Assembly: GCA_963833225.1 (NCBI GenBank)
Contig: CAWHXD010000008.1
Coordinates: 64,001-128,000, forward strand
Direction: 5' to 3'
Source: an uncultured Chloroflexia bacterium
GTDB lineage: Bacteria > Chloroflexota > Limnocylindria > Limnocylindrales > CSP1-4
Length of the DNA: 64,000 nt
Made by a program: the position numbers and the translations under genes. Every line of letters starts with the position of its first letter. Position 1 is the stretch's first letter. This document shows, piece by piece, positions 3,331 to 16,206 of the stretch. Under the pieces are notes generated by a model. That model was not told the origin of the DNA, ran no database searches, and saw only the letters and a list, made by a program, of their open reading frames with translations.

Positions 3331-4262
3331 GTGGCCGCGCGCCACGCCGCGGCTTCCGACGGGGGACCGGTCGCCGCCGGAACCGCGGTTGCCGACGTGC
3401 ACACGCACACGACGCGATCCGACGGCCTGCTGGAGCCGGCGCGAGCTCGTGCCGCGAGGCCGCGGCTGCGGGCGTGCGCCTGTTCGCGATCGCCGACCAC
3501 GACAACCTCGCCGCCTACCGGGAGCTCACGGCACCGGGCGCCACACCGCTGCCCGAGGGCCTCGAGCTCGTCCCGGCCGTGGAGATCAACGCGGTCGCCG
3601 GGAGCCTGGCGATCGACCTGCCCGAGGGCGAGCTGCACGTCCTGGGCATCGGCGTGGATCCGTTCGACGATGCCTTCGAGGCGGCGATCGCCGCGCAGCG
3701 CACCGCGCGCCGCCGTCGGTTCAGCGCCGCCGTCGAGCGCCTGCGCGCGATCGACATGCCCGTGGACGAGCACCTCCCGCCGGGGGTCCTCGAGAGCGAC
3801 GACGCGCTCGGGCGCCCGACGCTTGCCCGGGCGCTGGTCGCTGCCGGCCACGCGGACAGCGTGGAGGACGCCTTCCGCCGCATCCTGGGCACCGGCCTGC
3901 CGGGCTACGTGCCGCGGACCGGCATGGACCCGGTGGAGGCGATCCGGGCAATCCGCGGGGCGGGTGGCCTGGCCTCGATCGCCCACTTCGCCGACGCGCC
4001 GCTGCACCTGGGACTGCTGCGCGAGCTGGTGGGACAGGGCCTCGATGGCCTGGAGACCCACCACCGGTCGTTCGAGGCCGAGACGCGTGCGGCCATGACA
4101 GCCGTGGCCCGGCTCCTGGGCCTGGTCGAGACCGGCGGCACGGACTACCACGGCGACACCGGCAGCTACGCGGAGGACCATGCCCGCCTGGTGATGCCGG
4201 ACGAGCTGGTCAGCGGCCTGCGCGCGGCCCTGGCCGACCGGGGCTGGCCGGCGCGACCGTGA
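3331..4262 (+). CDS. PHP-domain phosphoesterase (frameshift near 3445)
   Basis: DVHTHTTRSDG in one frame; AIADHD, ELHVLG, IAHF, TGGTDYHG in the next. Confidence 0.85.
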
Positions 4263-6891: not shown

Positions 6892-6940
6892 CGCCGCGGG
6901 TGCAGGGGGATGCGGGCGACGAGCCGGTATGCTGGCCGCG

Positions 6941-8257
6941 ATGAGCCCCCGAGACACGATCGACCTCGCGCCCCACGTCGAGAAGGCGTTCCTCGTCGCC
7001 GTGGACACCGGTGATGACGCCGGGTGGACGGCCGAGGACAGCCTGACCGAGCTGGCCGCGCTGGCCGCCACGGCCGGTGCCGATGTCGTGGGCGCCGAGT
7101 GGCAGAACCGCCGCCATGTCGACCCCAACTGGTACGTGGGCAAGGGCAAGGCCGAGGACCTGCTCCAGGCGAAGTCCGAGACCGGCTTCGACATCGTGGT
7201 GGCGGACGACGAGCTCAGCCCGGCGCAGCAGAAGACCCTGGAATCGCTGCTCAACGTCAAGGTCATCGATCGCAGCCGGCTGATCCTCGACATCTTCGCG
7301 CTTCACGCCCAGACGCACGAGGGGCGGCTCCAGGTGGAGCTTGCCCAGCTCGAGTACCAGCTGCCGCGCCTGACCCGGCTGTGGACGCACCTGTCGCGCA
7401 CCGGCGGTGGCATCGGGACCCGCGGACCCGGCGAGTCGCAGCTCGAGACGGACCGCCGCCTGATCCGGGAGCGGATCAAGAAGATGAAGGCCAAGGTGGA
7501 CGATGTCCGCCAGCAGCGGCAGACCACGGCCCGTGGTCGAGACCGCCGGCTGTACCCCACGGTGGCCATCGTGGGCTACACCAACGCCGGCAAGTCGACG
7601 CTCCTCAACGCGCTCGTTGGCTCCGTCGTGGCCAAGGCCGAGGACAAGCTGTTCGCGACCCTTGATCCCACCTCGCGCCAGGTCAAGCTGGGCGACGGCC
7701 AGACCGCCATCGTCACCGACACCGTCGGCTTCATCCACAAGCTGCCCCACCAGCTGGTGGATGCCTTCCGGGCGACCCTCGAGGAGGTCACCCGCGCCGA
7801 TGTCCTGGTCGAGGTGGTCGACGCCTCCGATGCCCATGCCGCGGAGCACCGAGCGACGGTCCAGGTCGTGCTCGACGAGCTGGGTGCCGGGGACAAGCCG
7901 CGGCTGACGGCATTCAACAAGGCGGACCTCCTGTTCCCGGGCACCGATGGCGATCGGCCGGCCCCCGCCGTCGCGGGCTCGGTGCTGGTCTCGGCAGCGA
8001 CGGGGTTCGGGCTCGACACGCTGCGCGCCGAGATCGCGGCGCTGCTCGCGTCGCTGTGGGAACCGGTGGACGTCGATGTCCCGTACGCGGCGGGAGAGCT
8101 GCTGGCCCGCGTCCGCGAGCGTGGCACCGTGGACCTCGAGTACGGCGAGCGGTCCGTGAAGGTCCGCGGTCGAATGGCCCCGTCGCTCGCCGGCGAGCTG
8201 CGCGCCGTCGCGGACCGCTGGGCGGAGACCCTGGCCGAGGAAGGCGTGGGGTCGTGA
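6941..8257 (+). CDS. hflX: Ribosome-splitting GTPase HflX
   Basis: LQVELAQLEYQLPRL, GTRGPGESQLETDRR, GYTNAGKST, LFATLDPT, DTVGF, NKAD. Confidence 0.96.
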   Translation: MSPRDTIDLAPHVEKAFLVAVDTGDDAGWTAEDSLTELAALAATAGADVVGAEWQNRRHVDPNWYVGKGKAEDLLQAKSETGFDIVVADDELSPAQQKTLESLLNVKVIDRSRLILDIFALHAQTHEGRLQVELAQLEYQLPRLTRLWTHLSRTGGGIGTRGPGESQLETDRRLIRERIKKMKAKVDDVRQQRQTTARGRDRRLYPTVAIVGYTNAGKSTLLNALVGSVVAKAEDKLFATLDPTSRQVKLGDGQTAIVTDTVGFIHKLPHQLVDAFRATLEEVTRADVLVEVVDASDAHAAEHRATVQVVLDELGAGDKPRLTAFNKADLLFPGTDGDRPAPAVAGSVLVSAATGFGLDTLRAEIAALLASLWEPVDVDVPYAAGELLARVRERGTVDLEYGERSVKVRGRMAPSLAGELRAVADRWAETLAEEGVGS

Positions 8258-8853
8258 GCCCGCACCGCGGCGCACCCGTCCGTCGAGCGGGGACCGGCCG
8301 CCTGCCGGGAGGTCACCGGCTGACCTGGACCGTCGCCGACGGGCGCCGCGGGCGTCGGTGGCGCGCCACGACCACGAGTGCCGATGGCCGGCTGGTCGGG
8401 GCCCTGCTCGTGGAGGTTGGCACCGACGGAGCCCTGCGCAAGATCGAGGTGGCGTCACCGGCCGGCCTGCTGACGCTCCACCCGGAGGTGGGGGAGGGGA
8501 CCCTGCACGGCAACGTGGTCCGTCCCGCCGGGATCAGCCACGTCACCCTGCCGTGGACGGCACGGCACCTGCTGTTTGCCGGCAGCTCGCCCGTGACCGG
8601 GGCCGTTGCCGCGGCGCAGCTGGAACGCGAGCTCCCGGCAGGGCAGGGGAGCGCGATCCCGGCGGTCGAGATCGCGGACGACCTCTCGATCCGGCAGGCC
8701 ACCTGGCGCGTCGCCCGCGTGGGCGAGCGGCGCTGGCGCCTGCTGGCCGCCGACGGTGGTCCATCGGTGGCCGTCACGCTTGACGACGATGGCATCCCGA
8801 CCGCTCTCGAGGACGCGGAGACCTGGCCGCTGGAGGTCGATCAACCGGCCTGA
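8254..8853 (+). CDS. Hypothetical protein
   Basis: GTG overlaps the hflX stop (GTGA); coding-like composition. Confidence 0.7.
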   Translation: MSPHRGAPVRRAGTGRLPGGHRLTWTVADGRRGRRWRATTTSADGRLVGALLVEVGTDGALRKIEVASPAGLLTLHPEVGEGTLHGNVVRPAGISHVTLPWTARHLLFAGSSPVTGAVAAAQLERELPAGQGSAIPAVEIADDLSIRQATWRVARVGERRWRLLAADGGPSVAVTLDDDGIPTALEDAETWPLEVDQPA

Positions 8854-8863
8854 GCCACCCGCG

Positions 8864-8924
8864 CGTGGACAACCTGTGGACAAGCGCGCGATTTCCGAAC
8901 GCGACCCCTGCAAGTCGTGGATAA
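8864..8924. promoter_or_regulatory. Cluster of three co-oriented DnaA-box-like 9-mers
   Basis: CGTGGACAA 8864-8872, TGTGGACAA 8875-8883, CGTGGATAA 8916-8924; reverse complements match or differ by one base from TT(A/G)TCCACA. Confidence 0.6.
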
Positions 8925-8929
8925 CCCCG

Positions 8930-8959
8930 TTGCCGCGGCGCCCGGTCGCCGGATATTGT
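8930..8959 (+). promoter_or_regulatory. Putative sigma70-type promoter
   Basis: TTGCCG (8930-8935), 18-nt spacer, TATTGT (8954-8959). Confidence 0.5.
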
Positions 8960-8964
8960 GGGTC

Positions 8965-9124
8965 TTGCCCGAAGGGGCGGACGAACCAGCGACGGACCCG
9001 CAGGTGCTTGCACAGGCGGGGACGAGACGAAACCGCAGGTGCTTGCACAGGCGGGGACGAAACGGGAACGCGGTTGCTTGCAGCAGCGGACTCGACGCCG
9101 GGGAGAAAGTTCCTTCGGGCGTTT
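8965..9124 (+). ncRNA. Candidate small RNA of tandem CUUG-tetraloop hairpins
   Basis: Leading hairpin, three G-CUUG-C hairpins and a final hairpin; G-U wobble pairs work only on the + strand. Confidence 0.55.
8998..9060 (+). repeat. Perfect 28-bp direct repeat, two copies at a 35-nt period (degenerate third copy 9069-9092)
   Basis: CCGCAGGTGCTTGCACAGGCGGGGACGA at 8998-9025 and 9033-9060. Confidence 0.95.
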
Positions 9125-9174
9125 CGCTGTCTCCCGCGCTGACCGTCCCAGGGCGCACGACGAGGGTCCCGGCG

Positions 9175-10002
9175 GTGAGGGCACGAGAACTCCGGCAGGC
9201 GGTCGGCCGTCCCGGGTTCACCGCTGCCCTCGGGCCCGCGGTGCTGCTGGTGGGTGCGCTCGTCCCGTCCCTCCGGCCCCCGACCGCCCTGCTCATCGTG
9301 TTCGGCTGGTTGATCCTCCTGCGGGTGGTGCGATCCCCTGCAGCGGTTGCCTGGGCCGCCGTGCTGCCGCTCGCCGTGGTCCTGGTCTGGCCATGGGTAC
9401 TGGGTGCCGACGTGCCGGTGGGGGATCCGGGCTGCCGTGACCCACTCGCGACCATCGCCGTGCGTCGCGTCGCCGTGGCTGCGGTCGGTCTCGTGCTTGT
9501 TGCCGGCCTTGCCATCATCCATCGCTCCGGGCTGACGGAGCTCGGGCTCCGCCGGCCAACACGGTTCGAGGCCGTCACCTCGGCGGGCGGTGGCGTCGCG
9601 CTTGTCGCGGCGGGCCTGTTCATCGGGCCGGCCATCGCCCGACCGTTCTTCGGCGAGCTCGACTTCCCCGTGCCGGCGGCCGCCCTTGTCCCCGCGGCCG
9701 CGTTCGGCGTCGCGAACGGCGTCCTGGAAGAGGTGCTGTACCGGGGGGCGCTCCAGGCATGGCTCGCGCGAACAGTTCCGATGGCCATCGCGATCGCCAT
9801 CGGGGCCGTGGCGTTCGGCATCGTGCACGTTGGTCCCGAGGTCGTCGACCTCGTCCCCGTGCACGTCGCGCTGCTGACGGGCGCAGGGCTCCTCGCCGGG
9901 CTGGCGCGGTGGCGTTTCGGGTCACTGTGGATCCCGATCGGCTTCCACGTCGGTGCGGACGTCGCCCTCTACGTCGGGCTGGCCTGCCGATCTGCCGGCT
10001 GA
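9175..10002 (+). CDS. CPBP (CAAX/Abi) family intramembrane metalloprotease
   Basis: Multiple TM helices; EEVLYRG, FGIVH, GFHxxxD motifs; start approximate. Confidence 0.85.
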   Translation: MRARELRQAVGRPGFTAALGPAVLLVGALVPSLRPPTALLIVFGWLILLRVVRSPAAVAWAAVLPLAVVLVWPWVLGADVPVGDPGCRDPLATIAVRRVAVAAVGLVLVAGLAIIHRSGLTELGLRRPTRFEAVTSAGGGVALVAAGLFIGPAIARPFFGELDFPVPAAALVPAAAFGVANGVLEEVLYRGALQAWLARTVPMAIAIAIGAVAFGIVHVGPEVVDLVPVHVALLTGAGLLAGLARWRFGSLWIPIGFHVGADVALYVGLACRSAG

Positions 10003-11829: not shown

Positions 11830-11857
11830 ACTTCCGATAAGGTAAGTTATGTCTCGC
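11830..11857. other. dif-like XerC/D recombination site
   Basis: ACTTCCGATAA-GGTAAG-TTATGTCTCGC, an 11-6-11 layout with ATAA-N6-TTAT core; AT-rich in a very GC-rich background. Confidence 0.55.
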
Positions 11858-12747
11858 TATGTGCGCAGAACCGAGTGCAGAAAGCGCACGGCTCCTTCGA
11901 CCCGGGCCCGAATTAGGTTGAGGTGGGACATATCGAATACGCCCGACGAGCCGTGCGTACCGGCGTTGAATACCTTGAAGAGTTCAATCACCTCATCGAC
12001 GTCTGCTTCAGCGAATGCCGCGAGCGCTTCGGAGGGGCGGCCGGATCGGGCGAGGCAGTATCGAAGGCGAGCTCGTCGGGTTGGTCGGCCATCATGCGCG
12101 AGCGCAGCGTCCGGTTCCCACTGAAGGACCTCCACATCCGGTGCCTCCCGCTCAATGATCCTCGTGAGAATCTCCCTGGAGCTGGACGAGAAGTGGCGCG
12201 CCGCATCCGGGTTTCTTGGGCTGAGGGCAAAGAGCGCTCCGCGCCATCGGGTCGCAAGGTCCACCTCGAAGTCCGCCAAGCGCGCCTCGATCGCTGGGTC
12301 CGTCGCCGGCGCTGGATCGATGTCAGACCCCGGCCTGTCCGCACGCGCCAACGCCAGACTGTTCGAGGCTTCGTTCTGCGCTAGGTCGAGGATGTCAGGC
12401 CGGGACTCGAGCCAGGTGCCCATGGCGGCACTCTCGACCGCCTCGTAGCTCGCATGGAGACCTACAACCGCTCGGTAGTACGTGCTGGATCGCACCACAG
12501 TGCTGGGCGTGGACAGCTGCTGGAGCGAGGCTTTCAGCCTCCGACGGTTCTCGAGAACACGAGCGTTGTGGGCGCGAGCCTCGCGGTTGTAGGCATCCAC
12601 GCTCTGTCGGAGCTGGCGTTGTTGCTGTCGGACCTCGTCGTTGTGCCGCCTGACGGCTTGGTTGTACTTGTTGATCGCCTGCTGCTGACGCTGAGCTGCC
12701 TGCCGAAGCATCGAGGAATACTGACTAGGAGTCACTCGCCTGACCAC
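11857..12747 (-). CDS. Coiled-coil plus predicted pPIWI-associating nuclease-like (HEPN-like) domain protein
   Basis: Q-rich N-terminal coiled coil; NPDAARHFSSSSREIL and FNAGTHG resemble that family (recalled, not searched); lower GC. Confidence 0.6.
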   Translation of the reverse strand: MVRRVTPSQYSSMLRQAAQRQQQAINKYNQAVRRHNDEVRQQQRQLRQSVDAYNREARAHNARVLENRRRLKASLQQLSTPSTVVRSSTYYRAVVGLHASYEAVESAAMGTWLESRPDILDLAQNEASNSLALARADRPGSDIDPAPATDPAIEARLADFEVDLATRWRGALFALSPRNPDAARHFSSSSREILTRIIEREAPDVEVLQWEPDAALAHDGRPTRRARLRYCLARSGRPSEALAAFAEADVDEVIELFKVFNAGTHGSSGVFDMSHLNLIRARVEGAVRFLHSVLRT

Positions 12748-12786
12748 GTTGCTGCTCCTGCATAGGCGGCTTGGTGTGGGGCGAAT

Positions 12787-12800
12787 GGTACATCCGTTCT
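12787..12800. promoter_or_regulatory. Possible LexA (SOS) box overlapping the -10 of the nuclease gene
   Basis: Minus strand AGAAC-GGAT-GTACC, one mismatch from GAAC-N4-GTTC; TACCAT -10 at 12790-12785. Confidence 0.45.
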
Positions 12801-12860
12801 AACCACTTCGTCGAGGCGGCGGGAGGCGTGGATGAGAGTCCCTGCCGGCTGCGAGTGTTC

Positions 12861-13592
12861 CTACTCCGCGCCGTCCGGCGGCCCGGCCTCAGAGGGCGAC
12901 CCGCCATCCGAAGTTGGCGTCGCGGCTGCGCTGCGTCGATTTGCTCGCGCTGCCGCGCGCGCAGCCCGTTCCTGTTGCCACTCATCGAACCGCACCCGTA
13001 GGTCGTAGATGATCTCCATCAGAGCCTGAAGGAAATCGAGCGCGTACCGGGCGTCTCGGGCCGAGACGCGATCACCGGCGTGCGCTCCCTCGTTTCTGAC
13101 AATTCGCAGCCCATCGCCCCAGGTGCGCAACTCCTCGCTGATGGCACCCGCGTCGAGCATCTTCTTCAGGCCGTCGTGTATAGACCGAGACGAGGGATCG
13201 AAGTCGAGGCAGATGGCCTCCAGCGCTCGGCCCGCCATGGTGGCAACGGCGGTCCATGCCGTGGCCTCTTCGCAGCGAACAGCTTCGTCGTAACTGTGGC
13301 GCACATGCCTCGGCACCGCGAACGTGATGCGGCGGGCGTCGAATGGAAACTCGAGCACATACCTTGAAGTCTCGAAGGCGTTACTTTCCTCGTCGAACTC
13401 CCGCCGGAGGAGGAGCGGAAGAGAACACCCGGAGCAGACCGCATAGGTGAACTCCTCAGGATCGGACTCGCCGTCCCATCGGGTGTGCCGGCTGGCGACG
13501 CGGAACATTCGTGGTTGACCGCACTCTGGACACACATACGCCAGATCAGGCTTGCGCGGGGTGGCATCTTCGTCTGCGGAATCGTCAGGCAT
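12861..13592 (-). CDS. DUF4145-like (HEPN) protein with N-terminal zinc ribbon
   Basis: CPEC...CSGC; YDEAVRC, GRALEAIC, HEPN R-x4-H motif RNEGAH. Confidence 0.8.
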   Translation of the reverse strand: MPDDSADEDATPRKPDLAYVCPECGQPRMFRVASRHTRWDGESDPEEFTYAVCSGCSLPLLLRREFDEESNAFETSRYVLEFPFDARRITFAVPRHVRHSYDEAVRCEEATAWTAVATMAGRALEAICLDFDPSSRSIHDGLKKMLDAGAISEELRTWGDGLRIVRNEGAHAGDRVSARDARYALDFLQALMEIIYDLRVRFDEWQQERAARAAARANRRSAAATPTSDGGSPSEAGPPDGAE

Positions 13593-16206
13593 CAGGTACG
13601 ACCTTCGAGGTTGCGACTACCTTCATGACCTCGTCGCCGTAGTGGTTGATGACCTTCACAGCCACCTTGCCGGTGCGGGGCCGCGGGAACGGACGGGAGA
13701 CGGTGGAGTTGATCGTGGCCCAGGCTTCATCGCTGATGTCGGCGCGGAGGGCGCGGCGGAGCTTGTCGTAGGGGTCGTCGGCGCCCGTGAAGTAGGCGTG
13801 GCGGACGAAGAAGGCGTCGCCGTCGTAGTTGGTGTCCAGGAACCAGGCGGCGATGTCGTCGACCGAGGAGGAGCGGAGCTCGCCGGTGGTGGGGTCATAG
13901 ACGTCGAGGCCGCGGATCTCCACCTGGAGCTGTCCTTCCCCCACCGGGCGGACGTCGATGTCGGGCTCGCCGAAGACCATGAACAGGTTGCCGGTGCCGG
14001 TCTTCTTGAGGAGCTCGTCCCCCATCGCGAGGTCGGGGTTCATGCGCGCCTGGAGGATGGTGAGGCGGCCGAGGGTGCTGGCCTCCTCCCCCGCCAGCGG
14101 GTCGAAGGCGAAGCCGCACACGACCAGCAGGTCCGCAAAGTGAACGGCCTCCTTGGCGGCGTCGCGGATGAGCTCGGGACCGACGGTGCCGAACTCGGGG
14201 CCGATGGCGATGGCGACGGTCCGCGCCTGGCCGGCCTCGGTGTACTCCCCCACTCCCTGGACGAAGACGCCGGGGTATGGGTCAAGGCGGAGGAACTCGA
14301 GGCGCTCCTTGCGCTTCGTGTTCTGGACGCCGGCGCGACGAAGGTTGTCGAGGATGCTGCCGATGAAGCGGCCGGCATCGACCGCGGCCGGGATCGCCTC
14401 GGCGGCGGGCACGTCCTCCGGGCCGTCGACGTTGACGCGGTGGGGCGACAGGCTCTCGACGGTGAAGGGACCCGAGACGCGGACGATCTTGCGGTCCTCG
14501 TACGGGCGGTCGAACAGGGTCTCGGTGTCCGCGTGGCGGGCGATGGCGGCGTCGATCTCCTCGCGGGTCATGCCCTCGTGGATGTCCGGGTTCTGGGCGA
14601 TCGACTTGAGGGTGACATGCGGGACGCGCTCGTACACGAAGCCGCGGCGGATGTCGTTGGTGGGTCGCTCAAGCGTTAGCGAGTGAGCCTGGCCGGTGAC
14701 GTCGGCCTCCTTGCGGATGCCGGCTTCGGAGTCGGCGAGGAGGTAGTACGGGAACTTTGCGGCCATCAAACGGGAACGGGCCAGCGCGAGCGCGACGCGG
14801 CTCGTGTCGATCGTGATCCAGCGGCGGCCCCACTGCTCGGCGACGTACGCGGTGGTGCCGGAGCCGCAGGTCGGGTCGAGGACGAGGTCACCGGGGTCTG
14901 TCGTCATAAGCACGCACCGCTCAGCAGCCTTCGTGCCGGTCTGAACGACATAGATCTTCTCATCAGTGAATTGACCGGTCGCTGTGTCATCCCACAGCTG
15001 AGTGATTGGCACGTATGGGAAGTCATCGATATAGCGCACGTATCGAATTGAGTTGGAAGCGAGGTGTAGCCGTCGCGCTGCCGCAATCCGCGCTAGTCCG
15101 ACGGCCGTCGTCTTCCATGGCCTTGTATAGGCCTTGCCTTCGTATTCGAATGAGAACTCGGGGTTGCCCTGTGAACTCATGTCAGCAGGTACGTACCGGC
15201 GCGATCCTGCAGGAAGCGCCATGGCTCCGATTCGCTCTTGGCTGGCCAGTCCTCGCCGCGATCCATCCGGGAACTCGATCCAGTTGTAGGTGTCGGCGGT
15301 TCCTTCGTCCGTCGACTTGACTCGATAAAGTTGGCGATACTTGGCAGCATCCTTGTCGCGTGCGTACCAGAGAATGAAGTCGAAGCGCGCGGCCAGGAAC
15401 GAACTCGCGAGCCCCGTCGTCTTGGCGAATGCGATGTGCGCGCACAAGTTCGAAGCGCCAAACACCTCGTCGAGAAGGCTACGAACGAGGTGCACGTTCT
15501 CGTCACCGATCTGCACGAAGAGCGAACCTGAATCGGTCAGCAACTCTCGTGCCACGGCTAGCCGATCGCGCAGGTACGCGAGGTACGAGTGGATCCCAAG
15601 TTCCCACGTGTCTCGATATGCGCGCACCTGTTCCGGTTGGCGCGTGAGGTCGGAGTCCTTCCCGTCCCGGACGTCGCGCTTACGCGTCGAGACCTGCCAG
15701 TTCGAGCCGAACTTGATCCCGTAGGGCGGATCGATATAGATGGTCTGGACCTGGCCCTTGAGGCCTTCCTTCTCGGCGAGGCTCGTCATCACCAGCAGCG
15801 AGTCGCCCAGGATCATTCGGTTGGACCACTTGCCGGGGTGTCGGTAGAACTCGACCTTCTCCTTGAACGTGAGGTCCGTGTACGGCGCGAAGAAGCCGAG
15901 CTGCTCCTCGGTTTGCCGGCCCTGGCTCTCGGCGCGGAGCTCCTCGACGAGCGCCAGTGGGTCGATGGTCTCCTGGATGTAGATCGGGACCGCGGGGACC
16001 TCCAGGTCGTGGCTGTCCTGCTCGTCCTTGCCCTTCCAGACGAGCTGCGGATCCAGATCCGGGTTCCGGGGGTAGCGCACGATCGCTGGCCTCTTCTCCT
16101 CGGGGCGGGCGAACGACTCGAGCTCGGCGGTGGGGATGTTGGAGCGCGTGTCGCCCGGGTGCGTGGTCGCCCGGACCGGCGTGCTCGGCCTAATCCTGTC
16201 AGCCAC
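13585..16206 (-). CDS. mod: Type III R-M adenine methyltransferase (Mod)
   Basis: YIDPPYGIKF catalytic motif, VLDPTCGSGTT SAM-binding motif, C-terminal VAVKVINHYGDE. Confidence 0.92.
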   Translation of the reverse strand: MADRIRPSTPVRATTHPGDTRSNIPTAELESFARPEEKRPAIVRYPRNPDLDPQLVWKGKDEQDSHDLEVPAVPIYIQETIDPLALVEELRAESQGRQTEEQLGFFAPYTDLTFKEKVEFYRHPGKWSNRMILGDSLLVMTSLAEKEGLKGQVQTIYIDPPYGIKFGSNWQVSTRKRDVRDGKDSDLTRQPEQVRAYRDTWELGIHSYLAYLRDRLAVARELLTDSGSLFVQIGDENVHLVRSLLDEVFGASNLCAHIAFAKTTGLASSFLAARFDFILWYARDKDAAKYRQLYRVKSTDEGTADTYNWIEFPDGSRRGLASQERIGAMALPAGSRRYVPADMSSQGNPEFSFEYEGKAYTRPWKTTAVGLARIAAARRLHLASNSIRYVRYIDDFPYVPITQLWDDTATGQFTDEKIYVVQTGTKAAERCVLMTTDPGDLVLDPTCGSGTTAYVAEQWGRRWITIDTSRVALALARSRLMAAKFPYYLLADSEAGIRKEADVTGQAHSLTLERPTNDIRRGFVYERVPHVTLKSIAQNPDIHEGMTREEIDAAIARHADTETLFDRPYEDRKIVRVSGPFTVESLSPHRVNVDGPEDVPAAEAIPAAVDAGRFIGSILDNLRRAGVQNTKRKERLEFLRLDPYPGVFVQGVGEYTEAGQARTVAIAIGPEFGTVGPELIRDAAKEAVHFADLLVVCGFAFDPLAGEEASTLGRLTILQARMNPDLAMGDELLKKTGTGNLFMVFGEPDIDVRPVGEGQLQVEIRGLDVYDPTTGELRSSSVDDIAAWFLDTNYDGDAFFVRHAYFTGADDPYDKLRRALRADISDEAWATINSTVSRPFPRPRTGKVAVKVINHYGDEVMKVVATSKVVPDA

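Follow-up and report, generated by a model that had tools for sequence, protein, structure and literature searches.

Which gene, if any, lies at positions 8864-9124 of a 64,000-nt stretch of DNA (hereafter the window) from an uncultured bacterium of the class Limnocylindria, phylum Chloroflexota? The window is positions 64,001-128,000 of contig CAWHXD010000008.1. The whole element sits in the gap between a small conserved gene that ends at 8853 and a CPBP/Rce1-like protease gene that starts at 9175. A preliminary description, made from the letters of the window, read it as a promoter with DnaA boxes that drives a novel small RNA (sRNA) of repeated CUUG hairpins, and proposed that this RNA is a protein sponge like CsrB. 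We argue that the RNA gene and its unusual promoter are real, and that the sponge is not the best explanation for them. Judged by comparison with related genomes, the element is a conserved and unannotated gene for a non-coding RNA on the + strand. Its product is the hflX-linked member (the S1 type) of an uncatalogued family of structured sRNAs that, in the genomes searched, is specific to the Limnocylindria. What defines the RNA is not its repeated hairpins, which are a local expansion of recent date.

An RNA closed by its two ends

The + strand of the element folds at -91 kcal/mol (z -3.9; 1 of 200 shuffles was as good) and the - strand at -66 kcal/mol (z -1.4). The outermost helix of the + strand is a clamp, P1, which pairs GCCCGAAGGGGC at 8967-8978 with GUUCCUUCGGGC at 9109-9120. 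It is 12 bp long in the window RNA, and partition-function folding gives it a pairing probability of about 1.0. Two of its pairs are G.U, which would be A.C mismatches on the opposite strand. Inside the clamp is a second helix, P2, where CCAGCG (8986-8991) pairs with CGCCGG (9096-9101) in the minimum-energy fold. These features, and the others of the element described below, are all on the + strand. Directly 3' of P1 the members of the family have a U-rich tail with the consensus UUUUCGUG or UUUCGUUG. The tail of the window RNA, UUUCGCUG at 9122-9129, is weaker, with 4 U in 8 where most relatives have 5 in 8. We place the termination site here, and the stem upstream of it would be the long-range clamp.

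The clamp is best understood from the other copies in the same genome. A search with the two end segments found three paralogues, which makes four family copies with the window RNA. Contig C19 has two of them, one of about 180 nt flanked by a thymidine kinase gene and a NUDIX gene and the other of about 74 nt (C19:161378-161451). The third, of about 146 nt, lies on the + strand of contig C7 (C7:560112-560257, or about 3612-3757 of locus L055). All three have the same two end segments and mutually unlike interiors; the longest folds as a clamp with three arms. The same boxes stand upstream of each, three or four in number, together with a -10 hexamer, and their distances match those of the window RNA. 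The ends of the C7 paralogue, GUCCGAGGGGGCC and GGUUUCCUCGGAC, are changed at two positions on both sides, and all 13 pairs are kept. These compensatory changes show that the 5' and 3' ends pair together. The separate first and final hairpins of the preliminary description are therefore the two strands of one 12-bp terminal helix. The outer stem once drawn for the final hairpin (GGGGAGA/UCUCCC) was rejected as well, being without comparative support.

The same structure is found in two families of the class. The exact pattern of the two ends was seen in 39 genomes out of 60 sampled from the window's family. Not one of 140 genomes from four other families of the class has it. A covariance model was built from 29 short members. 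In the window's family it matches every genome (49 of 49), and in a second family 54 of 55. Three of the latter matches are unpublished genomes (G122, G131 and G156), and without them the count is 51 of 52. The clamp sequences of the second-family members are slightly different and still pair. In three other families the model matches nothing (0/7, 0/38 and 0/1, together 0/46). The covariation alignment holds 53 distinct members that were fitted to this model, so the structure is favoured by construction when we report that 97.3% of its cells are standard pairs and that 11 of the 21 pairs change on both sides. For P1 these values are 99.3% and 4 of 13. None of 500 column shuffles reached the observed figures, and pairing falls to 32-52% when the partners are slid by 1-3 columns. 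Scored with the model, the coding strand reaches 59-96 bits and the opposite strand at those loci 31-43 bits, a bias that fits the two invariant G.U pairs of the clamp. Sequence comparison thus shows conservation and covariation of the RNA strand, a clamp of 12-13 bp, the inner helices and the apical hairpin.

The interior of the window RNA is where the preliminary description saw its repeated hairpins. Three 35-nt units do exist in a GC-rich stretch, at 8991-9025, 9026-9060 (94% identity to the first) and 9061-9095 (66%). The hairpin of the first unit (8993-9024) has 14 stacked positions, including two tandem G.A pairs, and a CUUG cap. The second (9033-9054) is a near-identical, recent copy of it that is found in this genome only. 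The third (CGCGGUUG-CUUG-CAGCAGCG, 9069-9088) has a stem probability of about 1.0 and corresponds to the second hairpin of two-unit orthologues. The energy model would rather pair units 1 and 2 together (-83.7 kcal/mol) than fold them as two separate hairpins (-78.2 kcal/mol). The GGAC noted after each of the first four hairpins is indeed present. In every unit these bases make up the 3' half of a stem extension that includes a tandem G.A pair (CGGA...GACG).

The orthologues tell how these units arose. The full element is single-copy in its own assembly (3.89 Mb in 20 contigs, 86% complete). Relatives of the region are present in 21 of the 24 other genomes of the genus and in none of 16 genomes of a sister family, whose genomes are about 1.1 Mb. 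We read 19 orthologous loci, or 20 with the window. All 19 retain the boxes, the -10 hexamer, the 5' segment UUGCCCGAAGGGGC and the 3' segment GUUCCUUCGGGCG followed by a U-rich run, and their lengths differ by 35-nt indels in the interior. There is one apical hairpin in 12 of the 20 loci, there are two in 7, and there are three only in the window genome. The stem of unit 1 varies on both sides in two-unit orthologues (CCCGC/GCGGG becomes CCCAC/GUGGG or CCUGC/GCAGG). P2, read by eye, covaries in single-hairpin orthologues (CUGA/UCAG, ACUCG/CGAGU, CGGC/GCCG). The C and G of the CUUG loop switch jointly to U and A (UUUA) in 11 of the 53 aligned members, and GNRA loops (GCGA, GUGA) are seen as well. 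By this comparison the apical loops are interchangeable stable caps and not a recognition site. We infer that the three hairpins come from local tandem duplication, from one to two to three, of a single module inside the clamp, and that this was recent and lineage-specific. Triplication may raise the valency of the RNA, which does not require it for function. One can also imagine that the duplication is an artefact of assembly, as the preliminary description had allowed. A 65-nt contig from another study's metatranscriptome is identical to 8998-9060 (63 nt), which covers the junction of units 1 and 2 and all of unit 2. Since this contig comes from a separate study, the duplication is probably genuine.

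Two further checks support a non-coding gene that has not been catalogued. Long open reading frames cross the RNA region, but they must be non-coding because orthologues differ by 35-nt insertions. Rfam gave no match in the whole window at the gathering threshold, nothing relevant in six related loci at the same threshold, and nothing relevant for the window element or the long paralogue at E values up to 10. A full-text literature search found no paper on sRNAs driven by DnaA boxes or on sRNAs of Limnocylindria. The element does not resemble a dispersed repetitive extragenic palindromic (REP) or miniature inverted-repeat transposable element either, unlike which the full element occurs once in the genome, the four paralogous copies have unlike interiors, and the window copy is syntenic across genera. 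Synteny was shown for the window copy, the other three paralogues not having been traced across genomes.

Some details of the paralogues are worth recording. In the C7 paralogue three hairpins share one 13-nt loop, GAGAUCACCUCAAGG, and the 74-nt paralogue on C19 has one such loop. The 9-mer GAUCACCUC within these loops is identical to the 3' tail of the genome's own 16S ribosomal RNA (rRNA), in the anti-Shine-Dalgarno region, at an E value of 4.4 that makes it too short for significance alone. We considered whether any family copy is a copied rRNA hairpin and rejected this: blastn-short comparison of the four paralogues with the genome's own rRNA operon gave only matches of 9-11 nt with E values of at least 0.28. 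In genome G024 the 3' clamp strand and tail of the long paralogue are tandemly duplicated, so that UCCUUCGGGCGCUUUCGUG occurs twice (locus L024, about 3480-3530).

A promoter with DnaA-type boxes

Upstream of the RNA the parts named in the preliminary description are all where it put them: three co-oriented boxes and a weak promoter of the form TTGCCG-18-TATTGT. Read directly from the sequence, box 1 is CGTGGACAA (8864-8872). Box 2 is TGTGGACAA (8875-8883), in the same orientation after a gap of 2 bp. Box 3 is CGTGGATAA (8916-8924) and ends 5 nt upstream of the -35-like hexamer TTGCCG (8930-8935), a weak match at a position that is degenerate in other genera. The -10 hexamer TATTGT (8954-8959) follows after the 18-nt spacer, and transcription is inferred to start at about 8965-8967. 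Measured from the start of the clamp, the box pair lies at -103, the core of box 3 at -50 and the -10 hexamer at -13. The box starts are 41 and 52 bp apart, a rigid and helically phased layout.

This layout is kept across the family. We compared the 51 members that have enough upstream DNA. Counted from the clamp start, 49 of them have a GTGGAYAA core at -49 to -51 and all 51 have TAnnnT at -12 to -15. A box pair with a 2-bp gap and no more than 3 mismatches in 18 is present in 38, either direct at -102 to -105 or inverted at -115 to -117. Among 3000 random 130-nt windows of the genome there is one such pair. The family is thus shown to have a fixed promoter layout, in which the box pair with its 2-bp gap is followed by a third box with its centre near -46 and then by the -10 hexamer. 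Ten of the 51 members have no TTG at the -35 position. The two members without box 3 have a consensus CTTGACC as their -35 instead. This is the pattern that would be expected if a protein at box 3 substitutes for recognition of the -35.

Which protein would this be? The classical DnaA box is TGTGGA(C/T)AA. Against this consensus (TTATCCACA / TTGTCCACA) box 2 scores 9/9 and boxes 1 and 3 score 8/9. Three GTGGAYAA cores are found clustered at the window RNA and two of the paralogues and nowhere else in the genome, and a looser count of the 9-letter box with one mismatch adds the third paralogue. A box followed by 26-31 nt and TAnnnT occurs at six sites in the genome, namely the four sRNAs, rsmG (gidB) and parAB. 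The rRNA promoters of the genome are without boxes. We consider it likely, if not certain, that the boxes are DnaA boxes, and the idea of a novel sRNA coupled to DnaA is supported by their conservation across the family.

There are precedents for parts of this arrangement. E. coli DnaA favours box pairs that are 2-3 bp apart (PMC11317965), and the window promoter resembles DnaA-regulated promoters outside oriC in having consensus 9-mer boxes upstream and a pair at this preferred 2-bp spacing. In P. aeruginosa DnaA is reported to regulate gidAB-parAB directly (PMC13438810), and the same layout precedes rsmG and parAB in this genome. The products differ from those of the known promoters, being non-coding at four of the six promoters here, and the third box is fixed beside a weak or missing -35. 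DnaA binding at these sites is a prediction.

The rsmG (gidB) and parA-parB promoters, at C6:30458-30530 and C8:444241-444320 (loci L051 and L052), each have an inverted TTATCCACA box, then a GTGGACAA box, 26-31 nt and TAnnnT. The dnaA-dnaN spacer (C6:93869-94364) is a candidate oriC. It has a three-fold tandem repeat of GGCGCCCGTTGC(T), several boxes with a GTGGAY core, which are in favour of the DnaA identity, and an AT-richer patch, and there is a weak minimum of the cumulative GC skew at about 90 kb on contig C6, near dnaA. The window's own contig gave no clear skew signal. A second Bac_DnaA match was not taken for a DnaA paralogue, as the open reading frame translated there scored as a transposase (it was not confirmed to be the matching frame).

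An independent gene or something else

The gene neighbourhood bears on whether the RNA is a gene of its own. Upstream are hflX (6929-8257, + strand) and, directly after it, the small conserved gene (8254-8853, + strand), which has a DUF1089-like fold. The order hflX, small gene, RNA holds in 27 of the 27 loci with enough upstream DNA, in several genera. Downstream is the membrane protease (9175-10002, + strand; Pfam PF02517, E 6e-16), 53 nt after the clamp. A CPBP gene lies 3' of the RNA in 12 loci, and elsewhere its place is taken by a PALP enzyme, MBL-fold proteins or a PMT_2 glycosyltransferase. Five genomes of other genera have two RNA genes in tandem, each with its own boxes. Constant upstream neighbours, varying downstream genes and tandem RNA genes therefore favour an independent RNA gene. 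On balance we prefer the following account, which we hold with some reservation: the window contains an independently transcribed gene for a structured sRNA of about 160 nt (about 8965-9126, + strand), a member of the hflX-linked, end-clamped family, whose promoter is activated by DnaA.

It must be noted that several observations count against this account. A consensus promoter scanner flagged nothing, as TTGCCG/TATTGT has 8 of 12 consensus positions and the threshold is 9. A simple terminator scanner, which needs a loop of 3-8, flagged no terminator at the 3' end of the RNA. The run index showed only small shares in RNA libraries. Four RNA runs gave a few shallow contigs that show no start, end or strand, and some of these include promoter DNA. 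The 65-nt contig mentioned above is no proof of transcription, since RNA libraries can hold DNA, and the other RNA-library contigs derive from relatives. Upstream of dnaA no box comes within one mismatch, and the presumed oriC boxes are weaker: the dnaA-dnaN spacer has several GTGGAY-core boxes and only one box within one mismatch. It is thus conceivable that another protein with a DnaA-like site binds the boxes. Finally, the CPBP gene in the window has a Shine-Dalgarno-like GAGGG, and no -10 of its own was seen by eye, with no scan run. Given this and the 53-nt gap, read-through into the CPBP gene may matter in the window.

The last point leads to the main rival, which is that the RNA is a cis-acting 5' leader or attenuator of the CPBP gene. 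The DnaA-box promoter would then serve that gene, the clamp and U-rich tail would be a conditional terminator that sets the amount of read-through, and what we call an sRNA would be the terminated leader. The CPBP gene is on the same strand and follows 53 nt after the clamp, with its GAGGG and no obvious -10, and it follows in 12 loci. Two paralogues of the genome are placed alike, one of them followed by the NUDIX gene after about 34 nt and another by a same-strand open reading frame after about 53 nt. However, the downstream genes at other orthologous loci are different ones (PALP, MBL-fold, PMT_2). In the tandem arrays the first RNA gene is followed by the promoter of the second, and the fourth family copy in the genome faces a convergent cupin gene. 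In 3 of the 12 CPBP loci a -10-like hexamer belonging to the CPBP gene itself stands 6-7 nt ahead of the start codon, an arrangement known from leaderless mRNAs. We therefore regard the leader as unlikely. A scenario where only the DNA matters is less plausible still. The box triads would be sites for titration or recycling of DnaA, like E. coli datA or DARS, transcription through the hairpin-rich DNA beside them would do no more than modulate their occupancy by DnaA, and the RNA would be a by-product. It is true that the genome has its strongest clusters of DnaA-type boxes at the four RNA loci and not at the presumed origin, and that the boxes are rigidly and helically phased (41 and 52 bp). 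Against this stands the strong signal at the RNA level, which includes the compensatory changes, the one-strand G.U pairs and the scores of 59-96 versus 31-43 bits. Moreover, the two members that lost boxes kept the RNA behind a consensus promoter. We judge a purely DNA-level function improbable.

Two known kinds of RNA could also account for the product. One is an RNA that binds RNA polymerase, like 6S RNA or Ms1. The 6S slot of this genome looks empty, since RF00013 is unmatched in it even at E values up to 10, and the window RNA is a rod closed by both its ends, as a structured RNA of this kind would be. Yet the window element has no match to Rfam 6S or any other RNA family at E values up to 10. 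The orthologues are only 85-120 nt long, so that in most relatives the RNA is much shorter than these RNAs. Their internal loops are small and a large central bubble is lacking, and the paralogue of about 180 nt is three-armed and no rod. Further differences are the existence of several paralogues whose interiors are unlike, and the neighbouring genes. In Actinobacteria Ms1 is linked to a HAD-hydrolase gene (PMC9130861), and this neighbour is not present beside the window RNA. There is very little chance that the RNA is of this type. The other is the sponge of the preliminary description, a CsrB/RsmZ-type RNA that titrates a global RNA-binding protein. The window RNA does have three similar hairpins, and hairpin multiplication inside the clamp recurs, with three same-loop hairpins in one paralogue and one in the short paralogue. 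The likeness to CsrB/RsmZ lies in the repeated hairpin modules of this one genome. But a single hairpin is found in 12 of 20 orthologous loci, the tetraloops are interchangeable, and the GGA motifs are in helices and internal loops and never in hairpin loops. No gene for CsrA (PF02599), Hfq or TROVE/Ro60 (PF05731) was found in the genome; as the genome is 86% complete these absences mean not found and are no proof. A multivalent CUUG sponge is about as doubtful as a 6S RNA.

Two other systems are also similar to the independent sRNA gene. Y RNAs, including YrlA and YrlB, likewise come as several paralogues whose ends pair in a conserved terminal stem and whose interiors vary. Unlike them, the RNAs described here have no Rfam match, no tRNA-like domain and different promoters, and no Ro60/Rsr gene was found. 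The Qrr1-5 RNAs are sibling sRNA genes behind a shared regulator-dependent promoter, and the siblings share a seed region. The present family is similar in having several sRNA genes per genome behind a common regulated promoter, some in tandem. The difference is that its paralogues share their ends and promoter and differ in the interior, whereas Qrr siblings share the working seed.

A possible mechanism, and other features of the region

How might such a gene work? We propose that the boxes are bound by DnaA, probably in its ATP form (DnaA-ATP), which would activate a promoter of the sigma-70 type that is weak without it. The level of the RNA would then follow the status of replication initiation. 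The clamp with its U-rich tail would serve as a terminator and would protect both ends of the RNA. It may be a docking site for a protein too, which is suggested by its near-invariant sequence. The working part would be the interior, a rod of helices with tandem G.A pairs, and it more likely binds protein than base-pairs with another RNA because it has no conserved single-stranded loop.

A tentative extension, which we think is rather unlikely to be right as a whole, is that DnaA runs a regulon of modular end-clamped RNAs. The clamp would dock a protein and the interior hairpins would be decoys whose number sets the capacity (one to three G.A hairpins here, and one to three loops with GAUCACCUC, resembling the 16S rRNA tail, in the paralogues). 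If so, the status of replication initiation would be relayed to control at the level of RNA or the ribosome. DnaA is known to control a few protein-coding genes. If a whole family of structured RNAs were the main product of the transcription that it regulates, this would be a new link between replication initiation and regulation at the RNA level. It would also open a first way into the function of non-coding RNA in the Limnocylindria, an abundant uncultured class of soil and freshwater. The rigid layout, with its box pair, a third box that would replace a good -35 and a -10 hexamer, makes a simple testable system together with the two natural variants that have a consensus -35 and no box 3.

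The outer stem of the final hairpin was rejected on the following comparison. Pairing between the segment before the 3' strand of the clamp and the segment after the tail has a matched mean of -12.9 kcal/mol versus -12.7 kcal/mol when permuted, and 542 of 2000 permutations were as low.

The small gene upstream belongs to no Pfam or NCBIfam family. Its structural model is a DUF1089-like barrel with a predicted local distance difference test score (pLDDT) of 88.5, and the best match is PDB 2h1t (PA1994; E 7e-7). As an RNA-binding partner it was set aside, as it is without a sequence family and its likeness in fold to the DUF1089 protein PA1994 does not point to RNA binding. Some of its residues are invariant (His, Glu and Asn, in LLTLHP...LHGN...H...LPW) and resemble a metal or ligand site.

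Two observations lie away from the locus. An AT-rich stretch at about 2050-2600 of contig C5, in a genome of high GC content, may be contamination or foreign DNA. In the window itself, 11857-16206 holds a large open reading frame like a DNA methyltransferase (13585-16206, - strand) along with small open reading frames, possibly a restriction-modification or defence island.

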